Shown one piece after another: positions 1-16,403 of a stretch of 16,403 nt of DNA. The translations under genes were made by a program, and so were the position numbers. The DNA is taken from positions 1 through 16,403 of the forward strand of contig JBDRPD010000067.1 of NCBI GenBank assembly GCA_043827405.1, written 5' to 3'. The stretch comes from Elusimicrobiota bacterium. Its GTDB lineage: Bacteria; Elusimicrobiota; Elusimicrobia; UBA1565. Position 1 is the stretch's first letter, and each line of letters begins with the position of its first letter. A model generated the notes under the pieces. It made no database searches. It saw only the letters and a program-made list of their open reading frames with translations, and was not told the DNA's origin.

Positions 1-298
1 GGTCTTAAACCCCGCCAAGTTCGCCGCGGTCCGGGACGGCGAGGGCAAACGCCGCGGCTACTTCTTCTTCTCGCTCAAACGCGAAGGGAAGCTCTGGGAG
101 CGCTACCTCGAGTCGGCGGACGGCGCGCCCAAGGAACCCCGCGAGCTGATGGGCGCGCCCTTCCTGTGCGTGGACGCGCCGTCCCCCGAGTCGATGATCG
201 TCGGCAATCACTTCTCCTACGACGATGAGAGCATCCAAACCCCGCACGGGGTCGAGGTCATCCGGCGGCCCATCGCCAACGACGGACCCTCGAGCTAG
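1..298 (+). CDS. 3' end of a hypothetical protein (5'-truncated by the window)
   Basis: Frame 2 is open from base 2 (VLNPAKFAAVRDGEGKRRGYFFF...IANDGPSS) to TAG at 296-298, with GC-rich third positions like the neighbouring genes. Not in the ORF track as a full ORF. Confidence 0.7.
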   Translation, partial: VLNPAKFAAVRDGEGKRRGYFFFSLKREGKLWERYLESADGAPKEPRELMGAPFLCVDAPSPESMIVGNHFSYDDESIQTPHGVEVIRRPIANDGPSS

Positions 299-306
299 GC
301 CGGCGC

Positions 307-337
307 TTGCCCCGCGGCGTCACTTTCTTCCTACAAT
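307..337 (+). promoter_or_regulatory. Probable sigma70-type promoter giving a leaderless adh transcript
   Basis: TACAAT at 332-337 lies 6 nt before the ATG at 344 and there is no SD. TTGCCC at 307-312 is a weak -35 with a 19-nt spacer. Confidence 0.5.
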
Positions 338-343
338 ACCCGC

Positions 344-2142: not shown

Positions 2143-2174
2143 CGTTTCCTGACACGCACTGACTTCTCCTGACA
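2139..2174 (+). promoter_or_regulatory. Four phased CTGAC direct repeats; candidate response-regulator binding sites
   Basis: CTGAC at 2139, 2149, 2159 and 2169 (exact 10-bp period), forming two CTGACnnnTCCTGACA units upstream of the 2264 gene. Confidence 0.6.
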
Positions 2175-2263
2175 TTCCGGGGATTGAAGTCCCCGCCTGC
2201 ACAGTTACCCTATTAGTAGGTCACCCCCTCGACCGGCTTAACCAACGTAAACGAGAGATTAAG

Positions 2264-4819
2264 ATGCGCCGAGACCTGATCAGATTCAGCTTCATCTTCA
2301 CCCTGATCTGCTGCTTGGCCATGCCCGTCTTCGCCAAGAAAGACAAGGACGAAGACAAAGACACCGGCAAGCCGCCGGCGACCGAAGAGGAAAAGCCCGG
2401 CAAAGACAAGGACCAGCCGGAGCCGCCCGCGCAAGAAGAGCCGCCGGTAGAGGAACCTCCGGTTGAAGTTGTCCCTCCGATTGAAGAACCAGTTGAAGAG
2501 CCTCTGGTTGAAGAGCCGGTCGAAGAGGAAGGTGAAGACGACGACAAAGCCAAAGGCAATGACAAGGACAAGAAGAAGGACGAGCCGCCGGTAGAAGAAG
2601 AGCCCCCGGCCGAAGAACCGCCGGCGCCCGCTCCCGCGCCGGTTCCCGCGCCGGCGCCTGCTCCGGTTCCCGCGCCCTCGGCCAAGCCTTCCGAGTTCGC
2701 GGCGACGACCTCCCTGCCGCAAGCCTTCACCAACCATGCCCTGGTCCATGCCGACGGCCGGCTCTACCACCTGGGCGGGCTCGGGGCCAACGGCATCTAC
2801 TCCGCGAACAAGGCCTACTACGCCGCGATCGAAAGCCCCGGCGCGATCGGCGCCTGGACCGAAGCGGCGCTATTGCCCCGGGCGGTATTCGATCACGCCG
2901 CGGCGGCATGGAACAAGACCCTCTATATCCTCGGCGGCAGCCAGGCGGACATCTACAATTCGCGCGACCGCACCCCGCGGCCGTCCAATGTCGTCTACTA
3001 CTCAACGCTCAATCCCGACGGCAGCCCCGGCCCATGGGCCGCGGCTCGCCCCATGCCGGAACCCCTGGTCTCGCATACAGCGGTGGTCTCCGACAATACG
3101 CTTTACGTCAGCGGCGGCTGGCGCTACGGCGTACTCAGCAACCGCGTCTACTCCGCGCCGATACTGGCGGACGGCTCGCTCGGCAACTGGCAGGCGCATA
3201 ATGCCCTGCCGGAGTCCCTGCACTCCCATGCCGCCGTTCAGGACGGGACCCTGTACCTGCTCGGCGGGATAGACGGCAACGCCTATATGCAGAGCACGGT
3301 CTATATGAGCCGTATCGAAGCGGAAGGGGTGATCGGCACCTGGAGCGAAACCACGCCGCTGCTGCGGCCCCTCAGCATGCATGCCGCCGCCGTCGTGCAC
3401 GGCCGCATCTTCGTCAGCGGCGGCATGACCGGCACCGAGCCCACCAGCGAGGTATCGTTCGCGCCGATACTGGCCGACCGGTCGCTGGGCGAATGGGAGG
3501 TCGCGCCGTCGCTGCCCGCGCCGCTTTACGGCCATGCCTCGACGGCGGTCGACGGCGCGCTCTACGTGTCGGGCGGCTCCGACAGCGCCGCGGCGCAAAG
3601 CGCCGTTTACGCCATGGTATTCGAAGCGCAATCCGCGCCGGTCGCCACCGCGGACCTGCATCCCAATACCCTGAACCTGCTGAGCAACGGCAACTTCGTA
3701 ACCCTGTATCTCGAGTTCCCCGCCTTCGCCGCCCAGGCCTCCGAGATCGATCCGGCCTCGGTGCTGATCGTGAGCGTGAACGACCAGCCGGCGGCGCTCG
3801 CGGCGCTCGCCAAGCCGACCGGCCTGGGAGATGAGAACGACAACGGCATCGCCGACCTCATGGTCAAGTTCGACCGCTCCTCCTTGGCGGCGCTGATGAG
3901 CGCGGGCGACAATCGCATCGAGTTCCAGGGCCGCCTCAAGGACGGCACGGTTTTCTCGGCGGAAGACACCGTCTGGGCCAAGGAACCCAAGAAGCGTCTG
4001 GCCCGGAAGGCGGCGTTCAAGATGCCCGCGGTATCCTACGAACACAACGGCGCGCTCGGCATCGTGGGAAACCAGGGCGGCAAGATCAAGAGCGCCGCCA
4101 AAGCGGCCGTCGACGTTCCCGAAGGCGCGACCAACAGCGGCGTGCATATCTGCGTGACGCCCGAAGACACCTCGGACGATATCAAGAACACCCACCGGGA
4201 AGAGGCCAAGCTGCGCAAGGAATTGAAAGCCGCCGGTCCGGCGATCGAATACGGCCCCGAAGGCACCCAGTTCCAAAAGCCGGTGACGCTCGAACTGCCC
4301 TACGATGCCGCCTTGCTGCCCGACGGCGCCGAGGAAGGCGGCCTGCAGATCCACTACTGGAACCCGGGCAAGAAGGAATGGGAGGCGCTCGTTTCCGCGG
4401 TCGACCCCGAAGCGGGGGTCGTGCGCGCCCAGACCACGCACTTCTCGCTCTATCAGGTCCTCAGCGGCGGCGCGCCGGCGGCGCAAGAGGAGGGTGAGCC
4501 CGACTTCCACTTCCGCGAGGTATACGCCTTCCCCAACCCCGCCAAGCGCGGCGCCTCGCCGACCTTCCATATGGAAGCCGAGGCGGCCGACCGGGTGGAG
4601 CTGCGTGTCTACGACCTTTCAGGACAACGCGTCTACGCGGCCGCCATTGACGCGGCGGCCATGATCGACGACGGCTCGGGCCGCGGTCCCGTACGCTCGT
4701 ATGAGCATGTCTGGGACGTAGCAAGCGTGGGAAGCGGCGTCTATATTTTCACCGTCACCGCCCATAAGGCGGGACGCAAAGCCCTCCGCGCCGGCGGCAA
4801 AGTGGCGGTAGTCAAATGA
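2264..4819 (+). CDS. Secreted multidomain protein: signal peptide, acidic/Pro-rich linker, Kelch-like propeller, Ig-like domain, ZU5-like domain, T9SS/FlgD-like C-terminal domain
   Basis: Signal peptide ending VFA; EEPP and PAPAP tracts; six repeats of H.A....LY..GG, most followed by G..G.W; GPEGTQFQKPVTLELPY...HFSLY (ZU5-like); VYAFPNP...LRVYDLSG...WD...SGVYI...KVAVVK C-terminus. Confidence 0.85.
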   Translation: MRRDLIRFSFIFTLICCLAMPVFAKKDKDEDKDTGKPPATEEEKPGKDKDQPEPPAQEEPPVEEPPVEVVPPIEEPVEEPLVEEPVEEEGEDDDKAKGNDKDKKKDEPPVEEEPPAEEPPAPAPAPVPAPAPAPVPAPSAKPSEFAATTSLPQAFTNHALVHADGRLYHLGGLGANGIYSANKAYYAAIESPGAIGAWTEAALLPRAVFDHAAAAWNKTLYILGGSQADIYNSRDRTPRPSNVVYYSTLNPDGSPGPWAAARPMPEPLVSHTAVVSDNTLYVSGGWRYGVLSNRVYSAPILADGSLGNWQAHNALPESLHSHAAVQDGTLYLLGGIDGNAYMQSTVYMSRIEAEGVIGTWSETTPLLRPLSMHAAAVVHGRIFVSGGMTGTEPTSEVSFAPILADRSLGEWEVAPSLPAPLYGHASTAVDGALYVSGGSDSAAAQSAVYAMVFEAQSAPVATADLHPNTLNLLSNGNFVTLYLEFPAFAAQASEIDPASVLIVSVNDQPAALAALAKPTGLGDENDNGIADLMVKFDRSSLAALMSAGDNRIEFQGRLKDGTVFSAEDTVWAKEPKKRLARKAAFKMPAVSYEHNGALGIVGNQGGKIKSAAKAAVDVPEGATNSGVHICVTPEDTSDDIKNTHREEAKLRKELKAAGPAIEYGPEGTQFQKPVTLELPYDAALLPDGAEEGGLQIHYWNPGKKEWEALVSAVDPEAGVVRAQTTHFSLYQVLSGGAPAAQEEGEPDFHFREVYAFPNPAKRGASPTFHMEAEAADRVELRVYDLSGQRVYAAAIDAAAMIDDGSGRGPVRSYEHVWDVASVGSGVYIFTVTAHKAGRKALRAGGKVAVVK
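2336..2680 (+). repeat. Low-complexity coding repeats (KDKD, EEPP, PAPAPAPV)
   Basis: Repeated GAAGAGCCG-like and CCGGCGCC/CCGGTTCCCGCG units within the 2264 CDS. Confidence 0.7.
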
Positions 4820-5769
4820 GCAGGCGCAAGCTCATATCGATTTGGGCGGTCTGTCTCATTCTTGGCGCCGGGGGGAGAGCCGAGGGGGGAGAGACCGCCT
4901 CTTTTTTGAAAATATCCCCGGGGGCACGGCCGATCGGCATGGGCAATGCCTTCACCGCGATAGCCGATGACCTCAACGCCCTGGCCTGGAACCCGGCCGG
5001 CCTGGCCGACGCCAAGCAGCGCGAGGCCTCCTTCATGCACGCCGAGCTCTACGCCCATACGCGCTTCGACTTTATCGGCTACGCGCAGCCGCTCGACCAG
5101 TTGGGCCTATCCGGCACTTTCGCCATCGGCGTCTCGCGGCTCAGCCAGGAGACGATCAGCGGCCGCGACGAGAACCGCCGTCCCACCGGCTCATTTACCG
5201 CCGCCGATACCGCCTACCAAGCGGCCTACAGCGGGCGCTTCTTCAATAGCGGGACCAATTTCGGGCTGAGCGGGAAGTATCTGCAAAGCGCGCTCGGAGA
5301 TACGCGCGCAAGCGCCTTCGCCGTTGATATCGGCGTCAAACAGCATACCAACGCCGGCGGCCGGGATCTGACTTTCGGCGCCTCGGTCATGAACATCGGA
5401 CGCGGCATGCGCTACCTCGATGAGACCGACGACCTGCCGCTCACATTCTCCGCCGGCACGGGTCTGCGGATGTTCTCAAACATACTTCTAGCGGCCGATA
5501 TCCGACACCGCCCGCACAGCCAACAGACATCGTTCAGCTTTGGCTCTGAATACATAGTGCTTCCGACCCTGACGCTGCGCGCGGGCTACGGGACGCTTTT
5601 CAATTCGAGCACCCGCAGCGCCGGCAGCGCCAGCAGCGCCATCTCGCAGCTGCAGGGCATGGGCATGGGCATGGGGCTCAAGGTCGGCCGGGCTACGCTC
5701 AACTACTCTTTTGCCCCGGCCGGCGAGCTCGGCAATACGCAGCGGCTGTCAGTCTCGACTCGTTTTTAA
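4816..5769 (+). CDS. PorV/PorQ-family outer-membrane beta-barrel protein
   Basis: Signal peptide, then FLKISPGARPIGMGNAFTAIADDLNALAWNPAGL (PorV/FadL-like N-terminal signature), LRAGY, GELGNTQRLS and terminal Phe. ATGA overlap with the upstream gene. Confidence 0.85.
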   Translation: MSRRKLISIWAVCLILGAGGRAEGGETASFLKISPGARPIGMGNAFTAIADDLNALAWNPAGLADAKQREASFMHAELYAHTRFDFIGYAQPLDQLGLSGTFAIGVSRLSQETISGRDENRRPTGSFTAADTAYQAAYSGRFFNSGTNFGLSGKYLQSALGDTRASAFAVDIGVKQHTNAGGRDLTFGASVMNIGRGMRYLDETDDLPLTFSAGTGLRMFSNILLAADIRHRPHSQQTSFSFGSEYIVLPTLTLRAGYGTLFNSSTRSAGSASSAISQLQGMGMGMGLKVGRATLNYSFAPAGELGNTQRLSVSTRF

Positions 5770-8220
5770 CCGGTCGCGTCCTTCCACCAGCTTCCGCTGC
5801 AGATCCGGGTTATCCTCAACAGGCTTCGCTTTCAGCGCCCGTTCATAGAGCGCCAGCGCCTGGCGGGGATGTCCCTGCGCTTCATGGATGGAAGCCAAGG
5901 TCAGGTACGCCGACAATAACCCGGGTTCGCGCCGCAAGGCCTCTTGCAGATCCCGCACCGCCTGCTCCGATGAGCCGTTGAGATACTCGCATAACGCTTT
6001 ATCCTTCAGCAGGCTCGCCGTCGCCTCGCGCCGAATCAGCCGGCGATAGATTTCGAGCGCCGGCTCATACTCCTTAAGCTCCTGATAGACCAGAGCGATG
6101 CGATGCCGCGTCTCGCTGGAATTCCCGGCCAGCGCCGCCGCACGCGCCAATGATTCTTTTGCGGCGGCCTCTTTTCCCGCGGCCGCGGCCGCGCGGGCGT
6201 GTCGGATGCGCAGGTCCGCATCGCCGGGACGGCGGGCGAGAAGCTGGTCGAAAAGCGCCAGCGCCTTGGCGCTTTCTCCCAATGCCGAATAGGCGTCCGC
6301 CAGCAGGATCCGCCGGTCTACGCTTAAGGCGGAAATTCTGATCCCAGCCAGCTCCCGCCGGGCGCGCTTAGGATCGCCCAGCCGCAGCGCCGCCAGCGCG
6401 CGGTCGAGCAGGGACTCGGCGTTGCCGGCCGGCAGCTTATCCAGCACGGAAGCCCGCAGCCGCGCGAGCTCCAAATCAACCGCCGTGCCCCACCCCCGGC
6501 GTTCCTGCAATGCGGCGAGGAGCTCATTGACGGCATAGCCGTCTTCCGGCGCGGCCGCCACCCAAGCCCGCAGGTACTCTACCCGGCGCCGGATCCAGGG
6601 CTCCGCCGTGAAGTTGCGCGCCAGCCGTTGGGCGCCCGCCGCCTCCGGGGAAAAGTCCGCCGGATCGGGAATGGGAGAGGTCGCGCGCGCCGCGAGCTCC
6701 CAGTACACCCGGCCCTGCGGCGATACATGCCGCCGAGGCAGCCGGAACCCGCCGGCCAAAGACCGCGCGGCGGCGAGGCCTCCGACCGCGGGCTGGGATA
6801 TCTGCCGTCCGCGCGGGAAGTCGTCGCCTTCCCGGATACCGGCCGGACGATCCCCCCCCGGCGCGAAGAAAACGGTTCTTCCCGCATGCAGATAGCGCTC
6901 GATACGGCCGCCCAGCGCCGGCCCCGGCACGGCCGCGGGCACCTCGCATTCACGGTCTTCTCCGCCGCCGATCCGGATAAAGTTCAGATGCCCGTCATAG
7001 AGCATCTCGGGAAACGGACAGCCCGGCGTCAGCGCCACTCCGCGCTCACCCAGACGAGAGCGCAGGAAGCGTGATTCCGCCAGGATCGGGTCATTATCCG
7101 GCCCGAACTCGGAGTTCCAGATATGCTGCGCATTGAGCGCCAGCAGCGGCAGGCAGATTACCGCGAACACCCCGCGCGTCCAGGGAAAGCGCGCCAGCGT
7201 CATGGCCAGCGGCAGCGGCAACAGCAGAACAGCGGCGAAAATAAAGCTGTTGCGGTTATTATTGATCAGGAAGAACAGGGAAAAGAAGAGGAAGCTGGCG
7301 AACGCCAGCCGCACGCCGCGGTTGCGCTGCAGCCACCGCAAACCGTCTCGATCCCGCGATACGATCGCGAGCAGCAGGACGATCACCAGCAGCGGCAGCA
7401 CGGCGGCGCCGTGCTCCATGAACAGCGAGCGGCCGAAGCCCGCCGCTTGAGCGCGCAGGCTCGCACTGGTGTAGATCGAAGTCCCCGGGATGCTCTCAGC
7501 CGCTCGGAACAGGTCGCCGAAGCCGCCCAACGCGAACATGTCCGTACCGGCGCCGTGCCAATATATAAACAGCGCGTAGATCGCGGCCAGCACCGGGACG
7601 AAAGCGGCGAAGAAGCATGCGAACGGCCGCAGGCGGCGCCAGCCGCCGGCCCGCACTTCCCACAGCGAGGCGCATACCGCGACGGGCAGCAGCGAAATCG
7701 CCGCGGTATGAAAACCCGCCGCCAGCGCGGCGACGGCGCCCGCGGCGGCGAAACGCGCCGGGGCCTTCCAGCTTCCCGGTAGGCCGCCCAGCAGCAGCAG
7801 CGACGCCGTCACGCAGGCCGCGCCGAGCGCGTAAGGCGAGGCGCGCAGACTGTGCGTCCAAAAGCCCTGCGCGGAGTAGCCCAGCAGAAGCACGCACAAG
7901 GCCGCCGCGATTCCATCACGGCTGCGGCGTTCGGCATCCAGGAACAGGCCGGTCAAGGTCAGCGCGGCGGCGACGATATTGAGCATCTCGGCGGGCACCA
8001 GCATCCGTCCGTGATAGCCGGCGAGACCGAGCATGCCCCGCAGCGCTCCCAGAACCGGAACGTAGAGCGGATGCACCCATTCATGCGTGCCCCAACGGCC
8101 GTCCTCAAGGGAAAACAGGTAGCGCAGACCGTGAAAAAGGAAAGGGAGCAGGTCGAAGCTGATAACCGCCCAGGCGGCGAGCCCGACGACAAACAGCAGG
8201 CGGCCGCCGCTCTTACTCAG
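5749..8220 (-). CDS. Polytopic membrane protein with C-terminal TPR repeats; possible GT-C (DUF2723/TMEM260-like) glycosyltransferase
   Basis: Many hydrophobic helices, HPLY, FWTHSLRASPYAL and LAAGFH segments, and TPRs (ALALFDQLLARRP, AYLTLASIHEAQG..ALALYERAL). The track starts at GTG 8076, but the frame stays open through a further TM segment to CTG 8220, which overlaps the upstream stop. Start codon uncertain. Confidence 0.7.
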   Translation of the reverse strand: MSKSGGRLLFVVGLAAWAVISFDLLPFLFHGLRYLFSLEDGRWGTHEWVHPLYVPVLGALRGMLGLAGYHGRMLVPAEMLNIVAAALTLTGLFLDAERRSRDGIAAALCVLLLGYSAQGFWTHSLRASPYALGAACVTASLLLLGGLPGSWKAPARFAAAGAVAALAAGFHTAAISLLPVAVCASLWEVRAGGWRRLRPFACFFAAFVPVLAAIYALFIYWHGAGTDMFALGGFGDLFRAAESIPGTSIYTSASLRAQAAGFGRSLFMEHGAAVLPLLVIVLLLAIVSRDRDGLRWLQRNRGVRLAFASFLFFSLFFLINNNRNSFIFAAVLLLPLPLAMTLARFPWTRGVFAVICLPLLALNAQHIWNSEFGPDNDPILAESRFLRSRLGERGVALTPGCPFPEMLYDGHLNFIRIGGGEDRECEVPAAVPGPALGGRIERYLHAGRTVFFAPGGDRPAGIREGDDFPRGRQISQPAVGGLAAARSLAGGFRLPRRHVSPQGRVYWELAARATSPIPDPADFSPEAAGAQRLARNFTAEPWIRRRVEYLRAWVAAAPEDGYAVNELLAALQERRGWGTAVDLELARLRASVLDKLPAGNAESLLDRALAALRLGDPKRARRELAGIRISALSVDRRILLADAYSALGESAKALALFDQLLARRPGDADLRIRHARAAAAAGKEAAAKESLARAAALAGNSSETRHRIALVYQELKEYEPALEIYRRLIRREATASLLKDKALCEYLNGSSEQAVRDLQEALRREPGLLSAYLTLASIHEAQGHPRQALALYERALKAKPVEDNPDLQRKLVEGRDRLKTSRD

Positions 8221-8882
8221 CGCAGTTTCTCGCCGGCAGGGCCGTCGGTGAGTACGGCGAAGGTATTGACGAGGTTGTTGAACTTCTTGATGTGATGGTC
8301 GTAGCCCTGCCGCGTGGCGGGATAGACGAGCACGTAGAAGCCGGAGTCCATCGGCAGGACGACATACTCGTGCTTGCGGATGATGCCGTGGCGGTTGGTC
8401 TCGGGGTCGATCGCCACGCCGAAAGTGTAGTTCTCCGGCACATCGGCGATGGACTCGACGATAAAGTGCTTGCCCTCCCAGCCGGAGATCGATACGCGAT
8501 TGATATTCTTCGCCATGCGGCGGTCGGGCCCGTAGACATCGCGCAGGTTCTGGTTGATGTAGTCGTCGGCCGAAGCGTAGCGCTCATAGGTGTTGTCGCG
8601 CAGCGGAATCGAAGAGTTGGTCCGGTACCAGCGTATCGACAGGCTGGGCACGCCGTTGAAGAAGTCCTGATCGAACTGTCCGACGAAGGTATAGTTGGTG
8701 AAGTTTTGGCCCTGCTGGTCCACATACACATTCCAGCCCCAGGGAACCTGGACGGTATAATCCCCGAAACTGGACTGGTACTGGATATACCGCGGCGGCT
8801 TGCAGCTGGAGGCGAAAAGCGCGCCGGCCAGCATGCAGAGCCCCGCGGAAAAGTACAGCGGGCGTCTCATTATATTGCGCAT
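8217..8882 (-). CDS. Hypothetical lipoprotein (possibly PsbP-like fold)
   Basis: Basic N-terminus, hydrophobic core and FASSC lipobox, followed by YTVQVPWGW. Start placed at ATG 8882 (or 8870) because ATG 8903 is only 3 nt from the predicted -10. Confidence 0.75.
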   Translation of the reverse strand: MRNIMRRPLYFSAGLCMLAGALFASSCKPPRYIQYQSSFGDYTVQVPWGWNVYVDQQGQNFTNYTFVGQFDQDFFNGVPSLSIRWYRTNSSIPLRDNTYERYASADDYINQNLRDVYGPDRRMAKNINRVSISGWEGKHFIVESIADVPENYTFGVAIDPETNRHGIIRKHEYVVLPMDSGFYVLVYPATRQGYDHHIKKFNNLVNTFAVLTDGPAGEKLR

Positions 8883-8906
8883 GCGGTTTTTCGGCGCCGT
8901 CATCCG

Positions 8907-8963: not shown

Positions 8964-9035
8964 AGCCGGCGAGAGGATTTGAACCTCCGACCTACCGCTT
9001 ACAAGGCGGTTGCTCTACCCCTGAGCTACGCCGGC
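8964..9035 (-). tRNA. tRNA-Thr(UGU), CCA not encoded
   Basis: Minus strand GCCGGCG TA GCTC AGGGGTA GAGC A ACCGC CT TGT AA GCGGT AGGTC GGAGG TTCAAAT CCTCT CGCCGGC T folds as a full cloverleaf. Confidence 0.97.
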
Positions 9036-9059
9036 AATTGCTTTATTTTACAACAGATT

Positions 9060-10319
9060 TTAGTTCAGCGTCTCCCGCCTGACCTGGCTTTGTGGCCAAT
9101 CCGTGGCCAAAGTTTTCCATGCGTGTAAGTCGCCCGGAGCGGCGGGGACAACGGCGCCGGGAGCCGGAGGCTTCTTTTCGTCCAGGCCGAGCATGGCACC
9201 CATGACGGGCGCGAAGTGCTCAACCGAGGCGACCTTATGCTCCCGCCGCAGATGGCCGTATCGTTCCTGTATCTGGTCGGCGGTCGTGTGCCCGACCAGC
9301 GAAGCGATGGTCATGAGGTCCAGCCCCTTCATCACCGCGTAGGAAATATATGCGTGTCGTAGATCGTGGTAATGCAGGAAGGGCAGACCCGCCCTGCGCT
9401 TGATCGTGTTGAACGCCGTGTCGATCGACTTCCGGTGTCCCTTGCCGTCGCGTCCGGGGAAGACGTAGAGGCTCTTCATTCCTGCTGCCTCGGCCCGATC
9501 CCTCCGCTCGGCGAGCAACTGCGCTACCTCCCTCGGCATCGGCGGCTGCTGGGGGTCTCCGTCTTTCGTCTCCGGGAAGTAGATGGACTCGGTCTCGAAA
9601 TCAACGTTCTTCCACTTCAGGGATAGAAACTCACCGCGTCGGCGGCCCATAAGAAGACCCAGCAGGATCATATCACGGGCGTCGCGCTCACTTTCCAACA
9701 CCTCCGCCGCCTCTCTCAGAGCCTTGATCTCCTGCGGCTGGAGCAGGCGCTTGCGTTTGGCCTTCTTCTCGTCGAACAGCTTGACTCGGGCCACGGGGTT
9801 ACTCCTGATCAGTTTCCGACGGACTGCCATGTTCAGGATCGCTCGCAAACACTTTACATCCTTGTTGGCCGTGGTCTTGGAGACCAGCTTGGGTTTGTGC
9901 GTCCGGCTCCACTCGGCGATGCCTTCCTCGGTGCCGAAACGGCCCCTGAGAGGCGGCTGAACGAACTGCTCGGCACGGGCAACCAGAAAGTCATCGGCCA
10001 TGGCCATGGTAATGGCGTTAAGCGGCAGGTGTCCGAACGCAGGCATCAGGGTCTCGATACTCGCCTCGTCCTCTTTCCAACTTTTCTTGTGCGGCTTCAC
10101 CAAATCCAAATACTTCTGTGAGAACTCGGCGAAAGTCGGCGCCCGCTCTTCGAGATCGATGCCGAACCGCTCGTTCAAGAGGTCGTTCTTGAGCTTGGCA
10201 ACGATTCTCAGCGCGGCCTTCCTGTTCGTCCCGATCTTCTTGCGAATACGCTGCTTCGTTACCGGATGTCTCATACTAAAGTAGTAGATTCCGTCCCGTT
10301 CCCACAGTCCATCAGCCAT
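9060..10319 (-). CDS. int: Tyrosine recombinase / phage-type integrase
   Basis: N-terminal arm-binding-like domain, TFAEF core-binding domain, NPVARV, and catalytic R (GRRRGE), K (TKDG), HDLRH, GH and Y (ERYGH). GGAGGAG SD. Confidence 0.95.
   Translation of the reverse strand: MADGLWERDGIYYFSMRHPVTKQRIRKKIGTNRKAALRIVAKLKNDLLNERFGIDLEERAPTFAEFSQKYLDLVKPHKKSWKEDEASIETLMPAFGHLPLNAITMAMADDFLVARAEQFVQPPLRGRFGTEEGIAEWSRTHKPKLVSKTTANKDVKCLRAILNMAVRRKLIRSNPVARVKLFDEKKAKRKRLLQPQEIKALREAAEVLESERDARDMILLGLLMGRRRGEFLSLKWKNVDFETESIYFPETKDGDPQQPPMPREVAQLLAERRDRAEAAGMKSLYVFPGRDGKGHRKSIDTAFNTIKRRAGLPFLHYHDLRHAYISYAVMKGLDLMTIASLVGHTTADQIQERYGHLRREHKVASVEHFAPVMGAMLGLDEKKPPAPGAVVPAAPGDLHAWKTLATDWPQSQVRRETLN
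9092..9110. repeat. Direct repeat GTGGCCAA x2; candidate integrase arm-type sites
   Basis: GTGGCCAA at 9092-9099 and 9103-9110 (11-bp period), about 60 bp from the tRNA. Confidence 0.55.
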
Positions 10320-10348
10320 ACGCTACTCCTCCGTGCCCCCGATGGGAC

Positions 10349-10386
10349 AAAAAACAAACTCCGCGCCTAAAAGAGGACACGGAGTT
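10349..10386 (-). terminator. Intrinsic terminator-like hairpin between xis and int
   Basis: RNA AACUCCGUGUCCU-CUUUU-AGGCGCGGAGUU followed by UGUUUUUU. Confidence 0.7.
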
Positions 10387-10390
10387 CAGA

Positions 10391-10516
10391 CTACCGCCTT
10401 CTACTTTTAGGCCGCGCTTTCGTGGCACCCAAGCTGTCGCAAAGGCTCACGGTCGCATCGCACGGAAACAAATTCGCCGACGATGCGGACATTCTTAGCT
10501 TAACAGGCGTTTCCAT
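10391..10516 (-). CDS. Possible 41-aa leader peptide (METPVKLR...ARPKSRRR)
   Basis: ATG 5 nt after the xis stop, and its stop lies 4 nt before the terminator stem. No clear SD and no recognisable family. Confidence 0.3.
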   Translation of the reverse strand: METPVKLRMSASSANLFPCDATVSLCDSLGATKARPKSRRR

Positions 10517-10521
10517 TTTCG

Positions 10522-10719
10522 TCAAGGTCGGCGCCTCTGGACATGGGGCACGACCCGGAACTCCTTCATCCATTTTTCGAGTTCTTCCTCATCGAAGAGC
10601 ACTATGCCGCCAATCTTGATGAACGGGATTTTCCTTTCAGAAGTCCATGTGTAAATCGTCTTCGGGCTTCGCCGCAGTAATGCGGCCACTTCTTTCAACG
10701 TGAGTTTCCGGGCCATCAT
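10522..10719 (-). CDS. xis: Excisionase-like HTH_17 DNA-binding protein
   Basis: MMARKLTLKEVAALLRRSPKTIYTWTSERKIPFIKIGGIVLFDEEELEKWM is a classic excisionase HTH. ATGA overlap with the MTase stop and a GGAG SD. Confidence 0.88.
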   Translation of the reverse strand: MMARKLTLKEVAALLRRSPKTIYTWTSERKIPFIKIGGIVLFDEEELEKWMKEFRVVPHVQRRRP

Positions 10720-11762
10720 TTTCTCCGTCGAGCATTGTGATATCGGAAGCGGCAGGATTTCGAGCAGAACTCCTGCCACGGCTTTTTCTGGAAAAAGTTC
10801 TTCCCGCAGGCGGGGCAGGCCAGGGCCGCGTAGCGTTGGGGCGCCCCGCGCCTTCGCCCGCGTGGGCGCACTAGAGCGTGTGCCGAAGCGGCCTTATGAC
10901 CCAAGAGGGAACCGAACTCAGCCTCGGCGATCGCGGCCTCGGCCTGGGCGATGTAGGTCGCGTTCAGATCAGAGCCGACATAGTGGCGTCCCAAACGCTT
11001 GGCCGCGATCGCAGTGGTTCCGCTACCGAGAAAATTATCAAGAGCGACGCCGCCGATCGGTGCGCCATATCGCACAAGCCACTCCGCGACCTCAGGGTCC
11101 ATCGTGGCGGGATGGACACTGCTCTCCCTCCTGCCGTTAGCGATACACAGCGCATCTGCTTCGTCGGCACAGACCATGCGGAGCACGTCCTTGACCGGAA
11201 GCCTGTTCAGACGCTCCAGGGCCGGGGCGATGAAGTTCCCCCCGTCCGCGCCGTCAGCCCGATACTTCCACGAACGATTATCACGGGCAGCCCAGAGGGA
11301 AGGTCGGAGGACCGCGTCTTTGTTGACGGCGTATCTTTTTATGTCCTTGACGGCATGGAACACGATCTCGACGGAGCGCTTGAGTAGGCGCGAATCATTA
11401 CCGGGCAGCGCGTTAGTCTTAATGATCGAAAGCTGTTGGACAATATGGAAACCCCGACCAGCGAGCGCCTGGGGCAATAGGTAGTTCGTGGGAGAGAGGG
11501 TGCCACCGATCGACTGGGGCATGAAGTTTAAGAACAAGTTCCCGGTGGACTTGAGAATGCGCTTCCACTCACTGATCACCGGACCCAGGCGCTCAATAAA
11601 CTCACGGCCTTGGTAGAGCCCGAGGTCCTGGGGATCGTCCGAGTAGGTCCGCATCCGCTCGAACGGGATCGACGTGACGATCGCGTCGATCGACTCGGGC
11701 GGCACCCAGTCGAGTTTGTGGGCTGGGCAACAGCGGACTTGGTCGAGGAAATCGTGACTCAT
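10716..11762 (-). CDS. Beta-class N4-C/N6-A DNA methyltransferase with C-terminal zinc finger
   Basis: SIDAIVTSIPF (motif IV variant) precedes RILKSTG, HPATM and LDNFLGSGTTAIAAKRLGR (motif I). The tail is CPACGKNF...FCSKSCR. Start taken as ATG 11762. Confidence 0.88.
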   Translation of the reverse strand: MSHDFLDQVRCCPAHKLDWVPPESIDAIVTSIPFERMRTYSDDPQDLGLYQGREFIERLGPVISEWKRILKSTGNLFLNFMPQSIGGTLSPTNYLLPQALAGRGFHIVQQLSIIKTNALPGNDSRLLKRSVEIVFHAVKDIKRYAVNKDAVLRPSLWAARDNRSWKYRADGADGGNFIAPALERLNRLPVKDVLRMVCADEADALCIANGRRESSVHPATMDPEVAEWLVRYGAPIGGVALDNFLGSGTTAIAAKRLGRHYVGSDLNATYIAQAEAAIAEAEFGSLLGHKAASAHALVRPRGRRRGAPQRYAALACPACGKNFFQKKPWQEFCSKSCRFRYHNARRRK

Positions 11763-11812
11763 GTGTCCCCGCCGCAATCAGAGAACCAAAAGAGGAGCTT
11801 AGGACTGCTCAT
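11759..11812 (-). CDS. Micro-ORF, 17 aa (MSSPKLLFWFSDCGGDT)
   Basis: ATGA overlaps at both ends (11809-11812 and 11759-11762), with GGAG upstream. Confidence 0.4.
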   Translation of the reverse strand: MSSPKLLFWFSDCGGDT

Positions 11813-11883
11813 CTCTCTTCTCCGCGTTCGTGATGAGCTTCGGTATCCTCTACCCTCTTCGACGCCCAGGACGTGATCCTCAT
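11809..11883 (-). CDS. Micro-ORF, 24 aa (MRITSWASKRVEDTEAHHERGEER)
   Basis: ATGA overlaps at both ends (11880-11883 and 11809-11812). Confidence 0.4.
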   Translation of the reverse strand: MRITSWASKRVEDTEAHHERGEER

Positions 11884-12356
11884 GGCTCCGACTCGTCCAA
11901 AAGGTCGCAAGTGCAAAGTCGTTCCCGACATTCAGTGCAGAAGCGGTCTTTACTCTCCACTCGCGCCGTGCATGACGAACACCTGGGGACACCCCGTGGG
12001 CTCAGTTCGCAGCCGCAGGCAGAGCAGTAGGACTGCCCTTTGGCCGTGGAAGCGCCGCACGCTGGACACTTCTGCGCGACAGGGGCGGGATTCGTCCAAA
12101 CCAGCTTCGTCGTCGATATCCGATCCACCTGGAATTGCCATCGCCCCTCGTCCAAGATCGTTTCGTGCAGCGCTGTGAAAAACGCCTGCTCTTCGCTCTG
12201 GGCCTCGATCTCGACCTCGATGGTGACTTCGGCGGGCACCCGCACAATGTAGGTGCGGAGCTTCTCTGTCTGATTCTCTTGGGCAGCCATTCTCTTTCTC
12301 CTCGCGATCAATACGGCTCGACCATCTCGGCTTTCGCCCCGTTCACTCGCTGACAT
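11880..12356 (-). CDS. DpnD/PcfM-like domain + double zinc ribbon protein
   Basis: TYIVRVPAEVTIEVEIEAQSEEQA, then CPAC..CSAC..CSSC..CTEC. Start is ATG 12356 (AGGAGGT SD) or ATG 12290 (GAGGAG SD). Confidence 0.7.
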   Translation of the reverse strand: MSASERGESRDGRAVLIARRKRMAAQENQTEKLRTYIVRVPAEVTIEVEIEAQSEEQAFFTALHETILDEGRWQFQVDRISTTKLVWTNPAPVAQKCPACGASTAKGQSYCSACGCELSPRGVPRCSSCTARVESKDRFCTECRERLCTCDLLDESEP

Positions 12357-12579
12357 CAATGACCTCCTGCCCGCCAGGGCCTGCCGCGTTCCGCTCAGGC
12401 TGATCATCGTCGCGCTCGACATATCCGAAAAGAAGCCACCTAACCTCCAGCTTCCCGCCGCAGCGTTTGGGGCAGGGGAAGGTCGCGAAGTTGAGGCCAA
12501 GGGCGACAGGAACTTGGCCGACTCGGCGGAATCCGCAGCGACGGCACCAGTGCTCGACCGGGCGGGTCCAGGAATTCAT
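12343..12579 (-). CDS. Small zinc-ribbon protein
   Basis: CRRC...CPKRC. ATGA overlap with the upstream gene; paralogous to the N-terminus of 14042-14515. Confidence 0.65.
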   Translation of the reverse strand: MNSWTRPVEHWCRRCGFRRVGQVPVALGLNFATFPCPKRCGGKLEVRWLLFGYVERDDDQPERNAAGPGGQEVIDVSE

Positions 12580-12971
12580 GGGCGGGCCTCCGGTTCCTCA
12601 GGTGGACGACATGGTGACTCTTCGTTTGCTGCCTTGCTCTTGAAGATTCTCGACCAATCGGGTTGCGGCTCACGGGCGCTGCCGCCTGGGTGCTGGGCCA
12701 AGCGGATCATCTTGGTCGGCCTCCGCTGATCCCCGACTACCCTCCAGGGGTCAAGAACTTGCCTCACGATTCCGGCTTCGATGAGCCGCTGGATCGCCTG
12801 GTTTGCTCGCTCCCGGTTTCCGCCGACGATGCTGGTCAGGTGGGTCTTAGGCAGGCCCTCGGGGGGTTGCGACCGGAGAACCCTGAGAACCTCTTCCTGG
12901 CGGCGCCTGATCTTGAGTTCGAGAATCTGCTGGTCCCAGTAGGACTTCGGGTGTGAGTCATTCTCTGTCAT
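12576..12971 (-). CDS. Winged-helix DNA-binding protein
   Basis: VLRVLRSQPPEGLPKTHLTSIVGGNRERANQAIQRLIEAGIV; AGGAGG SD. Confidence 0.75.
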   Translation of the reverse strand: MTENDSHPKSYWDQQILELKIRRRQEEVLRVLRSQPPEGLPKTHLTSIVGGNRERANQAIQRLIEAGIVRQVLDPWRVVGDQRRPTKMIRLAQHPGGSAREPQPDWSRIFKSKAANEESPCRPPEEPEARP

Positions 12972-14052
12972 TGTTCCTCCTAGATTCCGACGGGGCGCTT
13001 CGCTCCAGGCCCCTCGACAAAATCAGATACTCCGTCTTCCCCCGGTTCGGTATCCGCTCGATCCGGCACCCCGCGTAGAGTTCCCGAACATCGCTCCCAG
13101 ATTCTTGGCTCACAATCCACGGTTCCCCACGCTTGATCAGCGCCGTGGCCAGCGCTTCGTGTTCGTAGTCGTCCATCCAGTAACGATAGAGTTGGCGCCC
13201 AGCGGTCGGATATGGAGGATCGGCGTAGACGACGGCCCGGTTCGGGAGCGTGCGGATCAGGCCCAGGGCGTCCTCGCATCGGACCTCGGTTCGGCCAACG
13301 AGCAGACGATGTATCCTTCTGATCCGTCGGGCGAACTCCGCCCCATCGAAGCGGTCGCAGTGGTCCTGGGAAAACCCGGACTCCCGGCGGCCACCGTGAC
13401 TTAGACGGTTGATCATGAGGCACTGGAACGCAGCGGGCAGATCGAGGTTCGGCTCGCCCCGGCCAAGTTCATTGAAGAATCTGCGCGTCGGTCTACGCCG
13501 CCGAATCTTCTCGGCCAAAGCTTGGTGCCCTTCTGTGTCGGTCAGAGTTCGCCACAAGGCCGCGATCGCCGGGTCCAGATCGTTGAGGACGAGCCGGACC
13601 CTCGGATAGTTTGCGGCGACCCAGAGCGCGACGGACCCGCCGCCGACAAAGGGCTCGGCGAATACCTTAGCCGTAGCCAGAGACGGGGCGAGGAGTGGGG
13701 CGATGTGTTTGATGAGCTTGTACTTGCCCCCAGGATAGCGGAGGACTGATAGGGGGCCGGGGATCAGGCGGCCACGGGAATTGGGTTGGCAACGCTCATG
13801 GTTCAATCCCCGATGCCCCGAGGCCCGAGAATAGCGCACAAGTTCGCGTCGCTTTTCGTCTTCGGCCAGGCCGAGCTTGGTCTTCTTCATGACCAAACCC
13901 CGATCGAGTAGAAGGTTGAGGGCGTAGCCGAATGTCTGATTTCTGAGCCCGGAGGCCCGGCGCAGAGCCATGAGGCCCAGGCCACCCGGATACTGATCCA
14001 GAGCGTCGATGACCTTGACCGCGTCCATGGCCAGGACTCGGTCAGCGGCCAC
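12958..14052 (-). CDS. D12-class (Dam-like) N6-adenine DNA methyltransferase with N-terminal winged helix
   Basis: LRYPGGK, EPFVGGGSV, LNDLD and VYADPPY motifs after about 95 extra N-terminal residues. GTG 14052 has a GGAGG SD and overlaps the upstream stop region. Confidence 0.88.
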   Translation of the reverse strand: MAADRVLAMDAVKVIDALDQYPGGLGLMALRRASGLRNQTFGYALNLLLDRGLVMKKTKLGLAEDEKRRELVRYSRASGHRGLNHERCQPNSRGRLIPGPLSVLRYPGGKYKLIKHIAPLLAPSLATAKVFAEPFVGGGSVALWVAANYPRVRLVLNDLDPAIAALWRTLTDTEGHQALAEKIRRRRPTRRFFNELGRGEPNLDLPAAFQCLMINRLSHGGRRESGFSQDHCDRFDGAEFARRIRRIHRLLVGRTEVRCEDALGLIRTLPNRAVVYADPPYPTAGRQLYRYWMDDYEHEALATALIKRGEPWIVSQESGSDVRELYAGCRIERIPNRGKTEYLILSRGLERSAPSESRRNNDRE

Positions 14053-14515
14053 TGTGCCTCCCTGAAGCCCGCTCAGTCCCTCGGGCAGTGGGTTGCCCGC
14101 CTCTTTCAATCAGTCGATGGATCGTTTGGAGCCGGAGCCGTCCGTCTCGCGCTCTTCTCCGCTCTGAGGTTTGAATAAGGAGTCCGGCCTCCCGGAGTCG
14201 CCGGAGTGCCAGGAAGACCGACGCCCACCGTGCCCTGACCTCGCGGAGGAGCGCGATCGTCGTCAGGCCATCCGGGGCTTGCCGTAGCGTGACGATGATT
14301 CGGGCCAGAGTGTGCTCGCCCTTCGGGTCAGCGGCCATGGGGTTTTTCGTGCTCTCCGGTCGGGGATACATGACCGTCCCGCATTCGGGGCAAGGGTAGC
14401 CCCCGAGGAACAGGTCGATCGTGATGCCGGGGGGGATGGTGACGGGACGTGTGTATTCGCACCGGGCACACCGGAACTCTTCAGGCCCAAGGAATCTCGG
14501 AGGGCGAGAGTTCAC
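14042..14515 (-). CDS. Zinc-ribbon + winged-helix protein
   Basis: CARC...CPEC, then IIVTLRQAPDGLTTIALLREV...ALRRLREAGLL. GTGA overlap with the rep stop. Confidence 0.75.
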   Translation of the reverse strand: MNSRPPRFLGPEEFRCARCEYTRPVTIPPGITIDLFLGGYPCPECGTVMYPRPESTKNPMAADPKGEHTLARIIVTLRQAPDGLTTIALLREVRARWASVFLALRRLREAGLLIQTSERRRARDGRLRLQTIHRLIERGGQPTARGTERASGRHSGR

Positions 14516-15414
14516 GATAGTCCTCTCGGATCAATCGGCCCGGACGGGTGCCAAGGCGGCTTCGGAGTCCGGCGGCCCATGCGTTTCGCCGCCTTGCGCC
14601 GAGCCGTATCTTCCCGGTTGGAGGCGTGGGTCGGATACATCGTGCCCCAGGACCGGATCATCGTAAGGCCGGATGTCGCCTGATGAAACTGGCGGAGCAA
14701 GCGCACATCGTGAGGAAGTTCTTGCCTCCGTGCGCCATAGGCCAGGACCTGACCCTGGGTGCCGGGCGTCACGGTCTCGGGCTCAACATTCCACGCGCCT
14801 CCGAGCCGGACCCAGTTCTTCTTGAACCAGTTGTCCGAGAGCCCCCCACCATAGTCGAGCAGGGCGTCAAAGTGAGGAAGCCAGCCCTCGGTCCCGTGGA
14901 TGATGTGCATGTTGACGACTCCACCCTGGACGGCCTGGCGGAACTCGGGCATCTCTCGGAACTCGCGGAACCGAGTGAAATGATCTTCAAGGACGCTCCG
15001 GGTCAGACGGATCACGGGGTAGCTCGTCAGGACCAGGTGGAGAGCGCTCCCCATCTTGGCCAGCCGGGCTTGGTATTTGGTCAGGAACACTCGTTCCCGG
15101 ACCCATCCGCAGATCGAGCAGAGCTTGACCTGCTGGCACCGGGCGCCGGGCTGGCACTCTTCGATCTTCAGGGCTCGGGCATAATCTATATGGCGCAGGA
15201 TGGCGGCGATGTCCCGGTTGGCCTTGTAGGCCCGGTCCAGGAGTTCATCGCGGGAGGGACGGGGCTTCTTCCGATCCTTGCGCTCCGGGAGGCCCAGGGA
15301 GGAGAGGGGGCTATTATAAAGACCTCTACCGAGGGTCCGATCCTGATCGAACTGGTCGCGCTTGTCACTCGAAGCGGCAAGGTGTGCTAAAATAGGTCTT
15401 GGTGATTGGGGCAT
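14512..15414 (-). CDS. rep: Rolling-circle replication initiator-like protein (Rep_1/pC194-type HUH superfamily), divergent
   Basis: Motif order matches Rep_1: Cys cluster C..CQQVKLCSIC, motif 1 HLVLT, GGVVNMHI, motif 2 WLPHFDAL, W...G, motif 3 YGAR, and C-terminal GLTMIRSWG. Start uncertain (ATG 15414 or TTG 15426). Confidence 0.72.
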   Translation of the reverse strand: MPQSPRPILAHLAASSDKRDQFDQDRTLGRGLYNSPLSSLGLPERKDRKKPRPSRDELLDRAYKANRDIAAILRHIDYARALKIEECQPGARCQQVKLCSICGWVRERVFLTKYQARLAKMGSALHLVLTSYPVIRLTRSVLEDHFTRFREFREMPEFRQAVQGGVVNMHIIHGTEGWLPHFDALLDYGGGLSDNWFKKNWVRLGGAWNVEPETVTPGTQGQVLAYGARRQELPHDVRLLRQFHQATSGLTMIRSWGTMYPTHASNREDTARRKAAKRMGRRTPKPPWHPSGPIDPRGLS

Positions 15415-15434
15415 ATCCCGTCTCAATCGCGCCG

Positions 15435-15475
15435 AAGAACACCGCCGCCTGCCAGGGTCGAGGCGGTGTTTTCTT
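15435..15475. terminator. Hairpin between the merR-like gene and rep; possible bidirectional terminator or attenuator
   Basis: AACACCGCC (15438-15446) pairs with GGCGGTGTT (15462-15470), followed by TTCTT on + and CTT on -. Confidence 0.5.
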
Positions 15476-15478
15476 GTG

Positions 15479-15670
15479 CTATAGGTTGATATTCCTTTTC
15501 GCTAGGAGCTTCCTCAATCTCCGCAGGTCGGCCTCGGTGTAAACACGGTGTCCGTTCTCAGTCCTCCTTGCGCGAGGGAGTGCTCCGATCTCCTCCTTGT
15601 AATACAGGACGGCCCGCCGGATACCGAGACGCCTGCAAACTATTCCTGGGCCAAGTAACTTTTCTGTCAT
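15479..15670 (-). CDS. MerR-type HTH protein (63 aa)
   Basis: RLGIRRAVLYYKEEIGALPRARRTENGHRVYTEADLRRL; GGAGG SD before ATG 15670. Confidence 0.85.
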   Translation of the reverse strand: MTEKLLGPGIVCRRLGIRRAVLYYKEEIGALPRARRTENGHRVYTEADLRRLRKLLAKRNINL

Positions 15671-15687
15671 CGTATCCTCCAGATTCG

Positions 15688-15779
15688 TATCATCTTGATA
15701 AGACTGAAAGAGTGTAGTCGAAGACACTCCGAAGCGCGTGACAGTCGCAGGGACAAAATTCCGCCACCGACTGTCACGC
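15688..15779. promoter_or_regulatory. Divergent control region with several inverted repeats
   Basis: Perfect 12-bp IR GCGTGACAGTCG (15736-15747) / CGACTGTCACGC (15768-15779); GAGTGT/ACACTC (15710-15729); TATCA-N3-TGATA (15688-15700). Confidence 0.6.
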
Positions 15780-15800
15780 CGATGTGGGGTTGCCCCAGCG

Positions 15801-16403
15801 ATGAACAACTTAAAGAAATTGCGCCCGCTCGCGGACGAGGTGAAAAGACATATTCGCAGCTTCACCCGCGAAGGCGGCGCGGCAGGATTTCTCTTTTTTG
15901 CATGGCAACTGGCGAGCTACGCGGGCTCGTTCACGGAGACAAAGGCAGGACTTCTGCGTGGCCCTCATCCGATCAAGAACAAGAAGAACCGGAAAAAAGC
16001 TATCGGCTATCTCAAGGGTCTGCTCGAACTCAATATCCTTGTAGGACAGGACGCAGGCGAACAGGTCCAGCAACTCTTCTCCAAGACGACTCGGGACGGA
16101 CTTCAAGGGCTGCTCGACTTACTGGAAGGACGCTTCGTCATCGCGGAGCACGAAGACATTTCGTCCCGGAGGGCTCCGAAAGCAAAGAACTATGGACGAC
16201 ACTACTTCTATGGCGCGATGTTTCCCTACATGGAGGCCGCTCGGATCGGCAATTTGACCTGGCGGCATCGCTGGCTGGGAAAGTGGTGCGCTCTCGTAGA
16301 GCCCATCTCGATTCACTGGAAAGGAATTGAGGAGGAGAAGCTCTTCAGAGGAAGCGGAGTGGAAATCGATACCCTGATCCGCAGCATCAGTGGCTACGAC
16401 ACG
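15801..16403 (+). CDS. Hypothetical protein, divergent from the main operon, 3'-truncated
   Basis: Manually translated: MNNLKKLRPLADEVKRHIRSF...IRSISGYDT, 201 codons with no stop to the window end. Absent from the track because it has no stop. Composition is more protein-like than the overlapping 15695-16330 frame. Confidence 0.72.
   Translation, partial: MNNLKKLRPLADEVKRHIRSFTREGGAAGFLFFAWQLASYAGSFTETKAGLLRGPHPIKNKKNRKKAIGYLKGLLELNILVGQDAGEQVQQLFSKTTRDGLQGLLDLLEGRFVIAEHEDISSRRAPKAKNYGRHYFYGAMFPYMEAARIGNLTWRHRWLGKWCALVEPISIHWKGIEEEKLFRGSGVEIDTLIRSISGYDT

Follow-up and report, generated by a model that had tools for sequence, protein, structure and literature searches.

The window analyzed here is the whole of contig JBDRPD010000067.1 (C67; 16,403 nucleotides), one of 108 contigs in the genome of an Elusimicrobiota bacterium (GenBank assembly GCA_043827405.1; 4.33 Mb, 97.97% completeness). 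Host genes occupy positions 1 to 8903 and encode an Fe-alcohol dehydrogenase, a response regulator, Kelch-repeat, outer-membrane-type and tetratricopeptide repeat (TPR) proteins, and a lipoprotein-like open reading frame (ORF). Beyond them lie a tRNA-Thr gene and, from position 9060 to the contig end, an integrated element with a GC content of 55 to 65%, versus 56 to 71% in the flank. Read from the tRNA, the genes of the element encode an integrase (int), an excisionase (xis), an N6_N4 DNA methylase with a C-terminal zinc finger, a double-zinc-ribbon (DZR) protein, a putative zinc ribbon, a putative winged helix-turn-helix (wHTH) protein, a Dam-like methylase fused to a wHTH-like module, a protein combining a zinc ribbon with a wHTH, a predicted rolling-circle initiator (Rep), and a MerR-like helix-turn-helix (HTH) protein (Table 1). 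All ten are intact ORFs with coding-type codon-position GC, and the minus strand holds every long ORF of this kind except the last in the window. The window terminates within the element, whose middle is unassembled.

The first-pass annotation of this DNA had described a single run of minus-strand genes from the MerR-like HTH to int, and both the ORFs and the family scans bear this out, several parts of the run through indirect support. Family matches confirm the integrase, the excisionase, the N6_N4 methylase, the DZR protein, the D12-class (Dam-like) methylase, and the MerR-like HTH; Rep, the wHTH modules, and the 78-aa zinc ribbon are backed indirectly, and the Rep, 78-aa, 131-aa, and 157-aa proteins have no family match in Pfam, PHROGs, or NCBIfam. 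The same three scans agree with the annotation that the window encodes no nuclease, capsid, relaxase, or type IV secretion system (T4SS) family, although the other arm of the element, on a second contig (C50), encodes a protein with a PD-(D/E)XK fold.

Table 1. Features of the element and its integration site (coordinates are those of the window)
Feature	Coordinates	Strand	Basis and remarks
tRNA-Thr, anticodon TGT, intact	8964..9035	-	ARAGORN; 5' half duplicated at the island's other end
attL repeat	8999..9051		blastn against the genome and alignment; spans the anticodon loop to the tRNA 5' end and a further 16 nt upstream
Tyrosine integrase (int), 419 aa	9060..10319	-	Phage_integrase 1.2e-20; phrog_1 1.1e-60
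Terminator-like hairpin between xis and int	10355..10388	-	Sequence; 13 pairs plus T run
Excisionase-type HTH (xis)	10522..10779	-	HTH_17 2.7e-14; TIGR01764 excise 5.9e-12
Beta-class N6_N4 DNA methylase	10716..11777	-	PF01555 1.9e-26, domain residues 30-280; motif IV SIPF, motif I FLGSGTT
Double-zinc-ribbon protein (DZR)	11880..12500	-	DZR 5.6e-6, just below the Pfam cutoff; likely start ATG 12347
Putative zinc ribbon, 78 aa	12343..12579	-	CxxC...CPxxC pattern alone
Putative winged-helix protein, 131 aa	12576..12971	-	Weakly similar to the 157-aa protein's wHTH (E 0.005)
D12-class (Dam-like) N6-adenine methylase, 383 aa	12958..14109	-	PF02086 1.1e-17, residues 125-353; DPPY
Zinc ribbon plus wHTH protein, 157 aa	14042..14515	-	42% over 64 aa to L016:4577-4993; Atlas lead HTH_DeoR 0.89
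Predicted Rep_1-superfamily HUH-type initiator (Rep), 304 aa	14512..15426	-	Relatives' alignment, AF2, structure search
MerR/excisionase-like HTH	15479..15865	-	MerR_1 4e-7; mad1 HTH 2.3e-10; likely start ATG 15670 (64 aa)
Divergent intergenic region, candidate double-strand origin, 126 nt	15675..15800		Separates the MerR-like gene from the divergent ORF
Divergent ORF, function unassigned	15801..16403	+	Open at contig end; codon-position GC 0.57/0.41/0.67, like element genes

Family matches, ARAGORN, and an att repeat together indicate site-specific integration into the tRNA gene by a tyrosine integrase accompanied by an Xis. The 53-bp repeat recurs once in the genome (blastn), at positions 6904 to 6956 of C50 (G000:C50:6904-6956), where 50 of 53 positions (94.3%) are identical, including a perfect 40-nt core; ARAGORN predicts no tRNA gene at that copy. 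Because int points at the tRNA and stops 24 nt short of its 5' end, the element is placed upstream of that gene, and the half that it carries is the 5' half, not the 3' half. A single insertion fits the orientation of the parts, which would read, in order, host promoter, displaced 5' half, C50 from 6903 to 1, gap, C67 from 16403 to 9052, and restored tRNA. The same layout, with int followed by the tRNA, occurs in four of four tRNA-adjacent loci with Rep or its relatives, namely the window, L006 and L014 (both at tRNA-Ser), and L007 (at tRNA-Gln, which int overlaps). Immediately upstream of the tRNA 5' end, the 16 nt at positions 9036 to 9051 and their counterpart at G000:C50:6941-6956 are identical at 13 of 16 positions. 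A TAAAAT, read from the sequence about 9 nt before the tRNA start, is kept in both copies, and the element may bring its own copy of this putative -10 promoter element of the tRNA.

Rep is assigned to the HUH initiators because of its relatives. A HMMER search of 1.84 billion representative proteins found 66 relatives at E ≤ 1e-3, with 25 at E ≤ 1e-10, and 51 of these were aligned (short fragments and two long multi-stretch matches were left out). The alignment displays an N-terminal Cys cluster and the motifs LTLT, HxH, and Y..K; 43 of the 51 match Rep_1 (PF01446, pC194 type; E ≤ 0.1, best 2e-20), 23 match REP_ORF2-G2P, and 21 match the IS91-type zinc domain. The window protein has the Cys cluster, a motif I (HLVLT, aligned with LTLT), a motif II (PHFDALL), and Tyr230, the catalytic tyrosine, which is invariant in the 51 sequences; the Lys of Y..K is replaced in its subclade. 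An AF2 model built on the 51-row alignment reaches a mean pLDDT of 83.3, with residues 1 to 47 disordered. The top match to this model in VIA is SIRV1 ORF119 (Z score of 8.9, rmsd 4.7, 112 aligned), followed by a Helitron transposase (Z 7.4), the Reps of parvovirus, vientovirus, nanovirus, adeno-associated virus, circovirus, and pMV158 (Z 5.9 to 6.8), and other viral and plasmid Reps from Z 5.5. Judging from sequence and model, we take Rep to be a divergent Rep_1-superfamily member with an altered metal site and a predicted initiator.

This Rep clade is rare in the lineage and escapes curated models as well as plasmid and phage collections. A word-based homologue search returned Rep itself only, a pattern scan of the genome contig collection yielded no relative, scans of IMG/VR with Rep, with one relative (P0002), and with an alignment were empty, and tblastn found no match in 72,556 plasmid records or 50,697 phage records. 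Counting this genome each time, relatives are present in 3 of 401 genomes sampled from the phylum (searched with the single protein), 6 of 101 of the order, and 8 of 393 of the class (both searched with a profile).

The closest relatives, at 40 to 44% identity, came from a metagenome scan and comprise L016 and the pair L017/L018, which are near-identical, so that the three loci represent two independent elements. Immediately downstream of Rep, L016 and L018 both encode a wHTH protein with a C-terminal zinc ribbon, an N6_N4 methylase, a small ORF, and a large serine recombinase. The wHTH of the L016 protein is 42% identical over 64 aa to the window's 157-aa protein, and the N6_N4 methylases are 25% identical over 229 aa. 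The order Rep, wHTH-zinc protein, N6_N4 methylase is therefore common to the window and two independent elements that differ in recombinase class, and the repetition of this triad in L016 and L017/L018 argues that the pairing is not random cargo. In the window, the triad looks expanded, with three weakly similar wHTH modules (one fused to Dam), separate zinc-ribbon proteins, and a zinc tail on the N6_N4 methylase. Scans of 9 ORFs in L016 and 13 in L018 detected no nuclease family. A conserved protein of 456 or 496 aa with no Pfam family is encoded just upstream of Rep in both (L016:2330-3700 and L018:6023-7513).

More distant Rep relatives keep other company. The methylase string is missing from L006, L007, and L015, and L014 instead has a type III restriction-modification (R-M) system; no Dam or wHTH/zinc protein was found in any of the four (blastp, 1e-3). 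The L006 load includes a sigma factor and a PDDEXK_1 nuclease. At L014 (G421:C325, 6242-11280, at tRNA-Ser), the related rep has as neighbors an HTH_3 gene and a type III pair (772-aa Mod and 905-aa Res). At L007 (G290:C69, 2496-3805), a 148-aa ORF matches only the N-terminal zinc-finger and motif I part of Rep, and directly after this N-terminal third come a Prim-Pol of 288 aa, xis, and an int that overlaps tRNA-Gln at its 3' end; the locus looks like a hybrid or a replaced replicase.

Methylase and DNA-binding genes are indeed located inside the rep-to-xis string, where there are seven between rep and xis. Each methylase had further been described as fused to an extra DNA-binding module. For the Dam-like enzyme this holds insofar as it has an N-terminal extension of about 120 residues, which is wHTH-like through weak similarity to the 157-aa protein (E 1e-4) and is retained in the public gene call P0101, beginning at M28; for the N6_N4 methylase, the module is a C-terminal four-Cys tail, read from the sequence, which the aligned methylases of the relatives do not have. 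A homologue search with the Dam extension recovered the window's own protein only, although such a word-limited search is no proof of a unique fusion. The three wHTH modules (in the 157-aa protein, the 131-aa protein, and the Dam N terminus) are connected by weak mutual similarity, with E values of 1e-4 and 0.005. The DZR protein, earlier labeled DpnD-like, has no such Pfam match at E ≤ 0.01; a paralogue is encoded in a second element of this genome (tblastn, 42% over 55 aa, C50:134937-135101).

Stop/start overlaps had been reported all the way from rep to xis and are present at four or five of the seven junctions. Four overlap from any start, and the fifth, at dzr, whose start is unsettled, does so from TTG 12500 or ATG 12347. 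The junction between the zinc-wHTH and Dam genes depends on the start chosen (a 68-nt overlap from a TTG, or a 13-nt gap from the ATG of the public gene call), and at least 102 nt separate the DZR gene from that of the N6_N4 methylase. The likely start of xis, ATG at 10719, overlaps the methylase stop. Between xis and int is a gap of 202 nt containing the terminator-like hairpin, a layout in which int appears not to be coupled to xis. Between the MerR-like gene and rep (15443-15478, minus strand), a GC-rich hairpin followed by TTCTTC is visible by eye and might act as an attenuator or as a single-strand origin.

We read the locus, with a probability of about 0.6, as a mobile element in the anticodon loop of tRNA-Thr that likely excises by means of its integrase and Xis, followed by predicted rolling-circle replication or mobilization from the Rep_1-type initiator; in this respect, the proposal of an integrative element with a rolling-circle-type Rep is supported by int and xis, the att repeat, and the relatives of Rep. 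The string from rep to xis would form one transcription unit, read from a promoter region next to the MerR-like gene, and induction of this unit would couple excision to replication, by analogy with pSAM2. The candidate origin is the divergent intergenic region, which bears a CTTGATA (positions 15694 to 15700, plus strand) and a 12-pair hairpin; as single-stranded DNA, it folds at -27 kcal/mol (z of -4.27), and none of 200 shuffles is equally stable. CTTGATA is described in PMC10378824 as the nick site recognized by Rep_1-like proteins. Co-expressed with Rep, the methylases would mark the DNA of the element itself, more likely for protection against restriction than for gating origin use or rep expression through the wHTH and zinc proteins. 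With no transfer gene in sight, the element would need a helper, or genes in the missing middle, in order to spread: the 12 window ORFs and the 12 ORFs of C50:1-8705 include no FtsK/TraB-like translocase or T4SS family, the middle of the element being unassembled.

A more specific function for the triad is conceivable, if doubtful. The methylated origin or new strand, read by the wHTH/zinc protein, might gate rolling-circle initiation, in which case the triad would be a mobile replicon module carried across recombinases and, in this element, duplicated and fused into the wHTH-Dam and methylase-zinc forms. The loci offer a concrete, testable case in which a rolling-circle Rep retains its methylase and its small DNA-binding protein as the recombinase shifts from tyrosine to serine type; if the link between Rep and methylase is functional, it bears on restriction evasion or copy-number control by small mobile replicons.

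Sequencing depth, taken from Logan contigs of groundwater run X1 (possibly the source sample), is 22.2 for the flank contig and 5.4 to 8.85 for element contigs, about a third, with the tool's own warning that depth is not copy number. At face value, these depths would place the element in a minority of cells, with no amplification, and presence in part of the population fits recent movement. Loose ends in X1 at positions 8999 and 9035 have no match to C50 sequence and so demonstrate neither an attP nor an attB junction; another, at 14502, is sequencing adapter.

Several observations count against the mobile-element reading. Rep itself has no match in Pfam (E ≤ 0.01), PHROGs, NCBIfam, PADLOC, or PDB sequences; Foldseek with its model gives no PDB match at E ≤ 0.001 (the best row, a circovirus Rep domain, stands at 0.019), and the VIA Z values fall in a range that the tool calls common, with non-Rep ferredoxin-like folds (ribosomal S6, ACT) interspersed. 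At the HUH motif, the window has H185-F-D187 in a column that is His in at least 90% of the 51 sequences; going by this Asp in place of the second metal-binding His, Rep could be inactive. CTTGATA occurs three times in the window versus 0.81 expected, a nonsignificant excess (three are reached in 11 of 200 shuffles); the copy in the candidate origin sits on the strand opposite rep, and the motif is not in L016 and is inconsistently placed in other relatives. No circular junction was found among the X1 loose ends, and an active high-copy plasmid state in the sample was rejected, given an element depth about a third that of the flank. We infer the link between C67 and C50, which do not overlap: no end overlap joins C67 to any contig, and BLAST of its last 1,500 bases returns only itself. 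The att-bounded interval may also be composite, with a piece of a host-like gene inside.

That piece, C50:1-286, is a host-like gene end (GC content at third codon positions [GC3] of 0.95) that is 97.9% identical to C40:1-286, after which C40 continues with host genes; since the two share this repeat, the assembly evidently broke there. Relatives gave no view of an empty site. The TPR flank gene has homologues in 13 of 16 other genomes of the family, and in the two loci viewed (G090 and G142) neither a tRNA nor another C67 flank gene adjoins it, so that synteny is lost at that distance.

The other arm bears on whether the methylases are orphan. Adjoining the C50 copy of the repeat is about 6.6 kb of low-GC cargo (47 to 57% for C50:501-7000, with 63% in the first 500 bases, versus 61 to 69% beyond), which, at C50:444-6775, encodes a 186-aa protein with no family match, a member of the erythromycin esterase family, BrnT/BrnA, an M1-like peptidase (a weak match), a DUF3024 protein matching the defense candidate PDC-M21A (2.8e-45), and a nucleotidyltransferase/HEPN (MNT/HEPN) pair. 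The 186-aa protein belongs to a family with 34 relatives in which D102, E115, K117, and four Cys are invariant. The VIA list for its AF2 model (pLDDT of 87) is led by PD-(D/E)XK nucleases (CdiA-CT, Z 8.8; Can2, 7.7; BamHI, 7.2; also BstYI, BglII, EcoRV, and MunI, with many type II enzymes), and both this list and the weak top rows in Foldseek, none at E ≤ 0.001, consist almost entirely of nucleases of that fold.

With a nuclease-fold gene in the same att-bounded interval, the orphan status given to the methylases in the first-pass annotation is unproven, and the element could instead be an R-M or defense island in which at least one methylase partners this protein, methylation protects the host, and the island is addictive. 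The company of the 186-aa gene (BrnT/BrnA, MNT/HEPN, and PDC-M21A) is of that kind, the best PADLOC match of the Dam-like methylase is PD-Lambda-5_B (4e-34), and L014 has its Mod and Res beside rep. We nevertheless consider such an island unlikely. The rep region, the assembly gap, and the host-like gene end lie between the nuclease gene and the methylases, and no nuclease family adjoins either window methylase, as a type II system would have it (Pfam, PHROGs, and PADLOC). Moreover, the 186-aa protein fits no PADLOC model, its fold alone is no proof of function, and the methylases of L016 and L018 adjoin Rep with no nuclease family among the ORFs scanned there.

The altered HUH motif raises a second alternative, a decaying remnant whose Rep has lost a catalytic-site His, which only integrates and excises or does neither, and whose gene string is inherited baggage. 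H-F-D is unique among the five closest sequences, as all four closest relatives keep the His (H-V-H, H-L-H, H-A-H, and H-L-H), and clear remnants exist among the relatives, namely L015, in which a rep fragment and xis but no int were detected, and L007, in which a Prim-Pol accompanies just the N-terminal third of Rep. Asp, however, can also bind metal, all ten genes are intact with coding-type codon-position GC, the att repeat is nearly perfect, and the depth suggests presence in part of the population, as recent movement would produce. Decay is, on this evidence, improbable. Least plausible is an integrated single-stranded-DNA phage (inovirus-like) or phage satellite with structural or hijacking genes in the unassembled middle, for which speak that missing middle, the 23 relatives matching the phage-type model REP_ORF2-G2P, and the conserved 456/496-aa protein of L016 and L018, but no Rep relative appears in the IMG/VR scans or the phage records, PHROGs offers no structural match for any of the 12 window ORFs, no Zot-type ATPase, coat, or capsid family occurs in the window or C50:1-7000, and tblastn detects no homologue of the 456/496-aa protein in this genome.

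Three further features of the genome deserve mention. The last host gene before the tRNA (8217-8903) is a 228-aa lipoprotein-like ORF with a lower GC content (58 to 62%), a high GC3 (0.84), and no family match. The divergent ORF at the contig end has no family match in Pfam, PHROGs, NCBIfam, or PADLOC and weakly matches a gene beside rep in L006 (33% over 45 aa, pairwise E of 6e-6); an overlapping minus-strand ORF (16119-16403) was rejected as a gene, with a codon-position GC (0.69/0.44/0.53) less gene-like than that of the plus-strand ORF. Finally, a second, larger island lies at about G000:C50:130000-160000 (L033 and L034), where no tRNA was found. Its backbone follows the order of the window element, with an integrase (352 aa), xis, the DZR paralogue, a 987-aa Prim-Pol, and a MerR-like HTH; after these come an N6_N4 methylase (937 aa), a fragment resembling TnsA, a small serine resolvase, a DnaB-like helicase, and an HTH-M78 pair. 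The Prim-Pol in the place of Rep would mirror, by analogy, the pattern of alternative replicases in the integrative and conjugative elements of actinomycetes (AICEs).

Among known systems, the nearest in plan is pSAM2, for which PMC2440964 describes a rep-xis-int operon and pC194-family rolling-circle replication, along with AICE variants that have a Prim-pol or a serine integrase. Like pSAM2-type AICEs, the window element is integrated in a tRNA anticodon loop by a tyrosine integrase with Xis and has a pC194-family Rep upstream of xis and int in one orientation, and among its relatives Prim-Pol can take the place of Rep, or a serine integrase that of the tyrosine integrase, in keeping with those variants. 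As a plan, then, the element does not form the undescribed family that was first proposed, and integrative mobilizable elements (IMEs) with rolling-circle initiators are likewise known from PMC5704250, in which Rep_1 proteins serve both replication and mobilization. The backbone is ordinary; only the close pairing of Rep with methylases is unusual, and the parts that stand out are the Rep clade and its steady company of a wHTH/zinc protein and a methylase.

The element also differs from pSAM2-type AICEs in several respects. Its assembled parts include no FtsK-like Tra, Kor (GntR), or Nudix Pif gene, the tRNA half that it carries is the 5' rather than the 3' half, and the host belongs to the Elusimicrobiota, whereas AICE hosts are actinomycetes. 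Compared with the rep-xis-int operon, the orientation is the same and the rep-xis part mostly overlaps, but int is set off by 202 nt that contain a terminator-like hairpin. The seven methylase and DNA-binding genes between rep and xis and the H-F-D site of Rep are also unlike pSAM2, and Rep has no detectable direct similarity to any of the plasmid records. Small, free plasmids of the pC194/pUB110 type share motif I, the catalytic Tyr, the N-terminal Cys cluster (seen in the relatives), and a CTTGATA upstream of the rep operon; the window element, unlike them, is integrated, reads H-F-D at the HUH motif, has the Lys of Y..K replaced, and finds no tblastn match among the plasmid records.

IMEs resemble the element in having their own int and xis, a rolling-circle initiator, toxin-antitoxin and R-M type cargo, and no mating-pore genes (here, in the assembled parts). 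Those described in PMC5704250 are mostly from Firmicutes and have Rep_trans/MobT, Rep_2, PHA00330, or Viral_Rep initiators, many with a TcpA coupling protein, whereas the window Rep belongs to a divergent clade resembling Rep_1, with no coupling protein in view and no known helper. In its attachment site, the element corresponds to the 5'-fragment class of Islander islands, which are bounded on one side by a full tRNA gene and on the opposite side by a 5' fragment, with the crossover in the anticodon loop. That class is the minority in Table 1 of PMC4383910 (159 of 3919 islands, versus 3760 with a 3' fragment), a paper that links the class to no replicon type. The element is also a neat instance of those rare islands whose insertion replaces a tRNA gene's 5' half and which must therefore provide that gene's promoter, and it extends the rep-xis-int "integrative plasmid" plan from the AICEs of actinomycetes and the IMEs of Firmicutes to an uncultured groundwater lineage.

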